3,240 nt of DNA from Escherichia coli. Its GTDB lineage: Bacteria > Pseudomonadota > Gammaproteobacteria > Enterobacterales > Enterobacteriaceae. Made by a program: the position numbers and the translations under genes. Shown here piece after piece: positions 301 to 425 of this stretch. A model generated the notes under the pieces. It saw only the letters and a list, made by a program, of their open reading frames with translations, searched no databases and was not told where the DNA came from. The DNA is taken from the NCBI RefSeq assembly GCF_003334255.1, contig NZ_QOWU01000124.1, one strand, 5' to 3'. Each line of letters starts with the position of its first letter. The stretch's first letter is position 1.

Positions 301-390
301 CTTAACGGGATGTGTACATAAATGGGTACGGATATGACGATTATTTTGGTGCTTTCTGTATTTAAATCAATTAGTTAATACTTGTATTCA

Positions 391-414
391 TTATATCCAT
401 TTAACTAAGAGGAC
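391..414 (-). pseudogene. argW: tRNA-Arg(CCU) argW, 5' fragment only (acceptor-stem 5' strand plus D arm); gene truncated after about nt 24
   Basis: The minus-strand sequence 414->391 is GTCCTCTTAGTTAAATGGATATAA, matching the first 24 nt of E. coli argW as I recall it. It forms a canonical 7-nt acceptor strand, a TA linker and a D-stem GTTA/TAA with an AATGGATA loop. No anticodon arm, T-arm (GGTTCGATTCC) or 3' acceptor complement (AGAGGAC-N-CCA) occurs downstream or anywhere else in the window. Its position just downstream of yfdC matches K-12 synteny. Confidence 0.7.
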
Positions 415-425
415 AATGCGGCATG

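Follow-up and report, generated by a model that had tools for sequence, protein, structure and literature searches.

The core of bacteriophage Φ24B was reportedly first described by Fogg et al. in 2007. Experimental work on this phage has covered the integration activity of its integrase, its excisionase and the requirements at its att sites, and its primary attB was placed '250 bp upstream of intS' (PMC3064807, PMC7581858). A '24-bp central crossover site' was described, and the minimal attB for IntΦ24B, which needs arms of 49 bp (B) and 20 bp (B') around the 24-bp core, was called unusually long (PMC7581858). The enzyme is a P4-like tyrosine integrase, and its gene is directed into the prophage. 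The words tRNA and argW do not occur in either of the two papers (PMC3064807, PMC7581858).

The STEC genomics literature describes Stx2a prophages as 'integrated into argW', and φPA8 lysogenises MG1655 at argW (PMC6580645). In GenBank HQ424691 an attL of 25 nt is annotated that overlaps the 5' end of a tRNA-Arg, and 24 nt are labelled 'duplication due to insertion' in LC727904 and in the LC616031 series. KplE1/CPS-53 and elements of the Sf6/HK620 type also use argW (PMC3509656). In Klebsiella, a survey found islands and prophages at the 5' end of the tRNA gene arg2, where the recombination site comprises the 5' acceptor strand and both stem and loop of the D arm, and where the tDNA is sometimes occupied at both ends (bioRxiv 10.1101/2020.11.02.365908). 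Integration at the 5' end or the D loop is rarer than at the classical sites (anticodon loop, T loop and 3' end), yet it has been reported before.

Here, we have analysed a stretch of 3,240 nt of Escherichia coli DNA (the window) in which a 5' piece of argW stands beside foreign DNA. There is very little doubt in our minds that a prophage of Φ24B type (933W-like, Sepvirinae) integrated site-specifically into the 5' part of argW and that window 301-489 is its attR, the junction on the tail side. Such a junction of Φ24B type at argW is already known and has been characterised experimentally. The window opens with the 3' end of a giant (~2793 aa) ORF with LPD38/LPD5 domains (1-268, plus strand), assigned from the RefSeq annotation of relatives and from primer mapping. 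With this ORF the gene order of 933W/Φ24B-like (Sepvirinae) prophages closes on the tail side, and it forms the outer part of the P arm of attP. Its frame in the window is open to the same stop codon as in the relatives, the corresponding CDS of one relative (L001, 11887-20268) ending at the equivalent of window position 268. It is followed by a GC-rich hairpin read directly from the sequence (CATGCCCCGTAC-GGAA-GTGCGGGGCATG, 275-300, no strand assigned) and by 90 nt of AT-rich, phage-derived DNA (301-390, no strand assigned), the inner P arm, which in phage genome records runs without a break into the core and on to the int side. The core, or argW stub, occupies 391-414 on the minus strand and would be the host-side copy left at attR. 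Next to it, also on the minus strand, 415-489 is identical to the K-12 sequence upstream of argW; it is the native upstream flank of the gene, that is, the B' arm of attB, parted from the tRNA body. The chromosomal flank on the 5' side of argW continues with yfdC (490-1422, minus strand; from the ORF list and the RefSeq annotation of relatives), and the junction is therefore anchored at the canonical yfdC-argW locus. Phage coding DNA amounts to 268 nt of the window; the integrase and the far junction lie outside it.

The reverse complement of window 391-414 is GTCCTCTTAGTTAAATGGATATAA and is an exact match to argW nt 1-24, for which the 75-nt genes of K-12 (L003 553-627) and of strain G1/2 (L002 6587-6661) were used. 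The remainder of the gene, nt 25-75 (CGAGCCCCTCCTAAGGGCTAATTGCAGGTTCGATTCCTGCAGGGGACACCA), has no matching 10-mer on either strand of the window, where the only argW 10-mers present are those of nt 1-24. Neither ARAGORN nor Rfam (E<=10) found a tRNA in the window. Given these negative searches and the limitation of the argW 10-mers to nt 1-24, window 340-414 does not fold into a cloverleaf. Window 388/391-480, which covers the 5' part of argW and the upstream flank by yfdC, is matched in 5426/5426 complete E. coli genomes, and since the match continues leftward across 390 in only 211 of them, the breakpoint is position 390. The base composition changes there as well, with 31% G+C at 301-390 against 46% for the whole window. 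An exact match of 24 nt at the syntenic yfdC-argW position is no matter of chance, and with 211 independent complete genomes that share the junction, both chance and an assembly artefact are excluded. By hand assignment on the 75-nt gene, the cloverleaf parts within the block are the acceptor strand (nt 1-7), nt 8-9, the D-stem strand (10-13), the D loop (14-21) and the returning D-stem strand (22-24). The block ends one base short of D-stem closure, which places the site in the D arm. In all these respects an earlier sequence-only reading of the window was borne out: it had recognised the stub at minus strand 414 to 391 as argW nt 1-24, had seen the switch to AT-rich DNA at 390, which the alignment to the K-12 locus puts at the same base, had reported the rest of the tRNA as absent from the window, and had pointed out that a surviving 5' fragment is the reverse of the pattern usually left by integration at the 3' end of a tRNA gene.

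That the stub belongs to a recombination site came from the comparison of four sequences: the K-12 site (attB), a region interior to the record of vB_EcoS_P27, an Stx phage (attP), the junction on the int side in strain G1/2 (attL) and the window (attR). The sole invariant stretch in the four is the 24 nt TTATATCCATTTAACTAAGAGGAC. Around this core, attB of K-12 reads argW nt 25-75, core, native upstream; attP reads P arm, core, P' arm and int; attL reads argW nt 25-75, core, P' arm; and attR in the window reads P arm, core, native upstream. The four sequences and their recombinant relation are direct observations, and the pattern is the textbook one in which attB and attP give attL and attR. 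The edge at which the stub breaks off is, to the base, the edge of the identity between attP and attB. Window 391-414 also shares all 24 nt with the core of Φ24B (L005 17-40), with that of three further attP sites and with attB of K-12.

We also joined window 250-415 to positions 6662-6900 of G1/2 (L002) to obtain a synthetic attP. Records of six distinct phages (eight records) contain it away from their ends as a single unbroken match over 100% of its length, which shows attP to be contiguous there. The identity is 97.5% for phi345, phi346, phi349 and vB_EcoS_P27, 92.3% for phi296, phi419 and Stx2 phage 86, and 91.8% for Lyz12581Vzw. The Φ24B record begins inside the predicted attP.

The published Φ24B system could be compared with the window through the primer table of PMC7581858, which we also used to check the core. 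The primer 'Int F' (TTATATCCATTTAACTAAG) is found exactly at 391-409 and represents the first 19 nt of the core. To the left, on the phage side, the Φ24B primers attP600F, attP427F, attP350F and attP237F map to 113-134, 175-191, 220-234 and 259-277; to the right, on the bacterial side, the attB primers map on the minus strand to 438-451 (attB125F), 549-562 and 676-695. As the primers of that study map to both sides of the junction, the window is the product of the reaction that its authors assayed. The window thus carries what characterises an attR of this system: the 24-bp core common to attP and the primary attB, the phage P arm on one side (primers at 113-277) and the bacterial arm, the flank of the primary attB, on the other (438-695). 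In K-12, intS lies 160 bp downstream of argW and the 5' end of argW falls at the position given for the primary Φ24B site, 250 bp upstream of intS. In this sense the agreement with the published Φ24B system is an observation; the base after the core differs, being A in the window and G in Φ24B. Integrase-catalysed recombination between these sites has been published for Φ24B, and for the locus studied here it is suggested by genomes named as lysogens, WG5::PA8 and WG5::PA2.

The reciprocal junction was found in relatives of the window. In strain G1/2 the junction is the right end of a prophage of ~62.7 kb, of 933W/Φ24B type, with an N4-gp56-like capsid gene, tail fibres, lom and, as the last gene, the giant ORF. 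At its other end are dsdC, an intact tRNA-Arg(CCT) on the minus strand, 195 bp, and a tyrosine integrase gene directed into the prophage. The closest relative of the window, SCU-104, has the same arrangement, and in both genomes the junction of the window is 100% identical and the far end reads int, 195 bp, intact tRNA-Arg(CCT), dsdC. The tRNA at attL of G1/2 agrees with argW of K-12 at 75/75 positions, and the integrase of the G1/2-type prophage is 97% identical to that of Φ24B (379/389), with the gene directed into the prophage as in Φ24B. Compared with Φ24B, the prophages of G1/2 and SCU-104 have no annotated stx genes and carry other cargo. In these relatives the prophage sits on the 5' side of an intact argW, and we would expect the source strain of the window, by its likeness to them, to have an intact argW and a matching far end as well. 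Among the 5426 complete genomes, the attR junction is present in 211, which span diverse lineages, and an attL with intact argW is present in 209. WG5::PA8 and WG5::PA2, genomes named as lysogens, carry the attR junction as well. Two of the 211 attR genomes have no full-length attL match; these may have rearranged or degraded prophages, or a diverged P' arm.

To understand how the stub could have arisen, we propose the following course of events. In the phage attP, argW nt 1-24 are present as an exact copy, flanked by a P arm, composed of the end of the giant ORF, the hairpin and the AT-rich DNA, and by a P' arm of ~195 bp that leads to int directed into the phage. The Φ24B-type tyrosine integrase exchanges strands somewhere within the 24-bp identity, and by analogy with anticodon-loop and T-loop sites this exchange probably takes place in or near the D loop, with the exact cleavage positions predicted to fall inside the 24 bp. 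As for inverted symmetry that might pinpoint the overlap region, inspection of the core by eye found only an imperfect TTAAAT/ATATAA pair. After integration, the tRNA body (nt 25-75) remains beside dsdC or intS, the phage-borne nt 1-24 complete argW at attL, and the DNA upstream of the intact gene is now of phage origin. The host nt 1-24 and the native upstream flank are moved ~62 kb to the other end of the prophage, by yfdC, where they form the stub seen in the window.

It is also necessary to ask whether the stub could be what the sequence-only reading had favoured, namely the dead remnant of an argW truncated by deletion or illegitimate recombination with unrelated DNA, in a strain without tRNA-Arg(CCU). 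The absence of the rest of the tRNA from the window and a 5' remnant unlike the leftovers of the common 3'-end integrases would be compatible with such a loss. However, the breakpoint coincides to the base with the identity block of a phage attP, so that a pseudogene made by deletion would have to share its breakpoint with the att site of a mobile element. Moreover, the junction recurs in genomes of diverse lineages, the named lysogens WG5::PA8 and WG5::PA2 carry it, and nearly as many genomes have the reciprocal junction with intact argW (209 against 211); every close relative examined has an intact argW at the far end of its prophage. In addition, argW was matched in 5426/5426 complete genomes and, among 12 matches sampled, all but one span the full 75 nt. 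We consider loss of the gene highly unlikely. The same reading had conceded that an intact copy of argW would mark the stub as an att-type partial repeat, and such copies are present in the relatives that share the junction; the alternative it had named, in which an element crosses over at an unusual site in the D arm, is supported by an identity block of argW nt 1-24 and an integrase system of Φ24B type. Its link to CPS-53/KplE1 or Sf6-type phages does not hold, as those use the 3' end of argW and the adjoining phage DNA is different. That the stub is an ordinary att repeat of such a 3'-end integrase (CPS-53/KplE1 IntS or the Sf6/HK620 type) could be suspected from their use of the same gene (PMC3509656) and from the position of K-12 intS 160 bp downstream. 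Yet the repeat is nt 1-24 and not the 3' end, the DNA beside it is the giant ORF from the tail end of Sepvirinae and not KplE1 or Sf6, and the cognate integrase resembles that of Φ24B and is encoded 5' of the tRNA; in HQ424691 the two integrase types flank the tRNA on opposite sides. Integration at the 3' end, as by KplE1/CPS-53, Sf6, HK620 or P4-type elements, also finds no counterpart in the window, in which no 10-mer of nt 25-75 occurs, and this explanation has next to no probability.

A more modest alternative accepts that a Φ24B-type prophage integrated and supposes that it was later partly deleted or rearranged, for example by IS1, so that the far end, the integrase or argW may be missing in this strain. 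An IS1 end at 3165 cuts yfdF nearby, 2/211 attR genomes have no full attL match, and what is visible of the phage in the window is 268 nt of coding sequence. Against this, the visible phage part is 98-100% identical to that of intact prophages, the giant ORF is open to the stop codon of the relatives, and the attL that belongs to this attR is present in ~99% of the genomes that carry it. A remnant prophage is thus unlikely, though somewhat less so than loss of the gene, and we retain the interpretation of window 301-489 as attR of a prophage of Φ24B type.

As attR of such a prophage, the locus has several counterparts. The Stx2a prophages at argW of O157:H7 clade 8 and other STEC (PA2/PA8, VT2phi_272 and the Stx2_EH0505 series) have the same attR, with 97.9-98.9% identity over window 1-470, and the GenBank annotations of 24 and 25 nt mark this repeat; they carry stx2a, and the window covers no cargo region. 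With an att identity that comprises the 5' acceptor strand and both stem and loop of the D arm, and an element upstream of the regenerated tDNA, the locus belongs to the D-loop or 5'-end class of tDNA sublocations. The Klebsiella arg2 elements resemble it in being upstream of the tDNA and in the possibility of double occupancy, which is seen at argW in HQ424691; they belong to a different genus, and their integrases are assigned to clade I.d in that survey. In that record (L006 1-2759) argW is occupied at both ends, by an IntS-like integrase on the 3' side and a Φ24B-type int on the 5' side. KplE1/CPS-53 IntS, HK620 and Sf6 share with the Φ24B type the target gene, the tRNA piece carried by the phage and the regeneration of the gene. 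After their integration a 3' fragment is left and the native promoter stays with the gene, whereas the Φ24B type leaves a 5' fragment and exchanges the promoter.

The primer table of PMC7581858 is informative for the host site as well. The reverse primer attB110R starts at argW nt 73, and the 49-bp B arm therefore corresponds to argW nt 25-73. By this mapping, the functional attB of IntΦ24B takes in argW nt 1-73 and the adjoining 20 bp upstream, and so in essence the entire tRNA gene. The recombination literature on Φ24B can in this way be tied to the tRNA: its '24-bp crossover site' is argW nt 1-24, and its 49-bp B arm is the rest of the gene.

A Φ24B site within the 5' part of argW implies an exchange of promoter for argW in lysogens, and because the native upstream flank has been moved away, the gene would there be transcribed from phage DNA. 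The native promoter is presumably still in 415-489, where a candidate read by hand consists of TTACCC (454-449), 17 nt and TATACT (431-426); a consensus promoter and terminator scan of window 250-560 called none. In the lysogen, a candidate TTGATT-18-TATTAT faces argW from within the nearly invariant P' arm, at a distance of ~32 nt upstream of the tRNA. It matches the consensus at 9/12 positions, which is no better than chance, as shuffles of the region give 1.0±1.0 such sites. The displaced native promoter would drive the 24-nt stub fused to the P arm, possibly up to the hairpin at 275-300. This hairpin has no T-run on the plus strand and a T-rich tail (TTCTTTACT) on the minus strand only. 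Transcripts from the displaced promoter (415-454) could end there, giving an orphan chimeric RNA of ~150 nt; the hairpin is a putative terminator. It also corresponds to inverted repeat I2 of a homologous attP in our repeat search.

The exchange of the argW promoter and a possible orphan stub transcript are not discussed in PMC3064807 or PMC7581858, and they are the threads that may still be worth following. Taken together, it is conceivable that IntΦ24B would recognise nearly the whole tRNA gene, given its unusually long attB, that in every lysogen the promoter of argW would be replaced by phage DNA, and that lysogeny by Φ24B-type phages could thereby retune the supply of the AGG-decoding tRNA or yield the orphan chimeric RNA. 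We put this joint proposal forward as speculation and are ourselves rather doubtful of it. If true, Φ24B-type phages, which often encode Stx, could alter the supply of a rare tRNA that decodes AGG.

For genome annotation, a stub of the 5' part of the tRNA at argW ought to be counted neither as loss of the gene nor as a new rearrangement. Prophages of Φ24B type, among them the Stx2a phages of O157:H7 clade 8, routinely leave this signature, which ~4% of complete E. coli genomes carry, and pipelines that seek only displaced 3' tRNA fragments miss such prophage boundaries.

Within the P arm, three blocks are kept between diverged attP sites, namely TGTGTACATAA (311-321), GGGTAC (325-330) and ATTTAAATCAAT (361-372), of which GGGTAC lies inside an 8-nt block conserved at 7/8 positions. 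The sequence TGTGTACATA (311-320) is a candidate arm-type site to which Int may bind. The repeat search gave one sequence resembling TGYGTACAKA in the P arm (window 311-320) and another three in the P' arm, a short way upstream of int (L004 1805-1814, 1815-1828 and 1839-1852); they may likewise be arm-type Int sites. In phages with P arms that diverge by ~20%, the P' arm is nearly invariant.

On the chromosomal side, yfdC is followed by mlaA (1716-2471, plus strand) and by yfdF (from 2653, minus strand), which is cut by the IS1 end at 3165. The IS1 terminal sequence GGTGATGCTGCCAACTTACTG... runs from ~3165 (window 3165-3240) and interrupts yfdF, a gene that extends ~550 nt further in relatives; the IS1/yfdF junction was found in one piece in 0/5426 complete E. 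coli genomes, so that the source strain is not one of these. Between mlaA and yfdF, the hairpin of their convergent terminator (2477-2527) had only sub-threshold Rfam matches, to STnc320, STnc40 and mir-556, which are best read as a generic resemblance to terminators.
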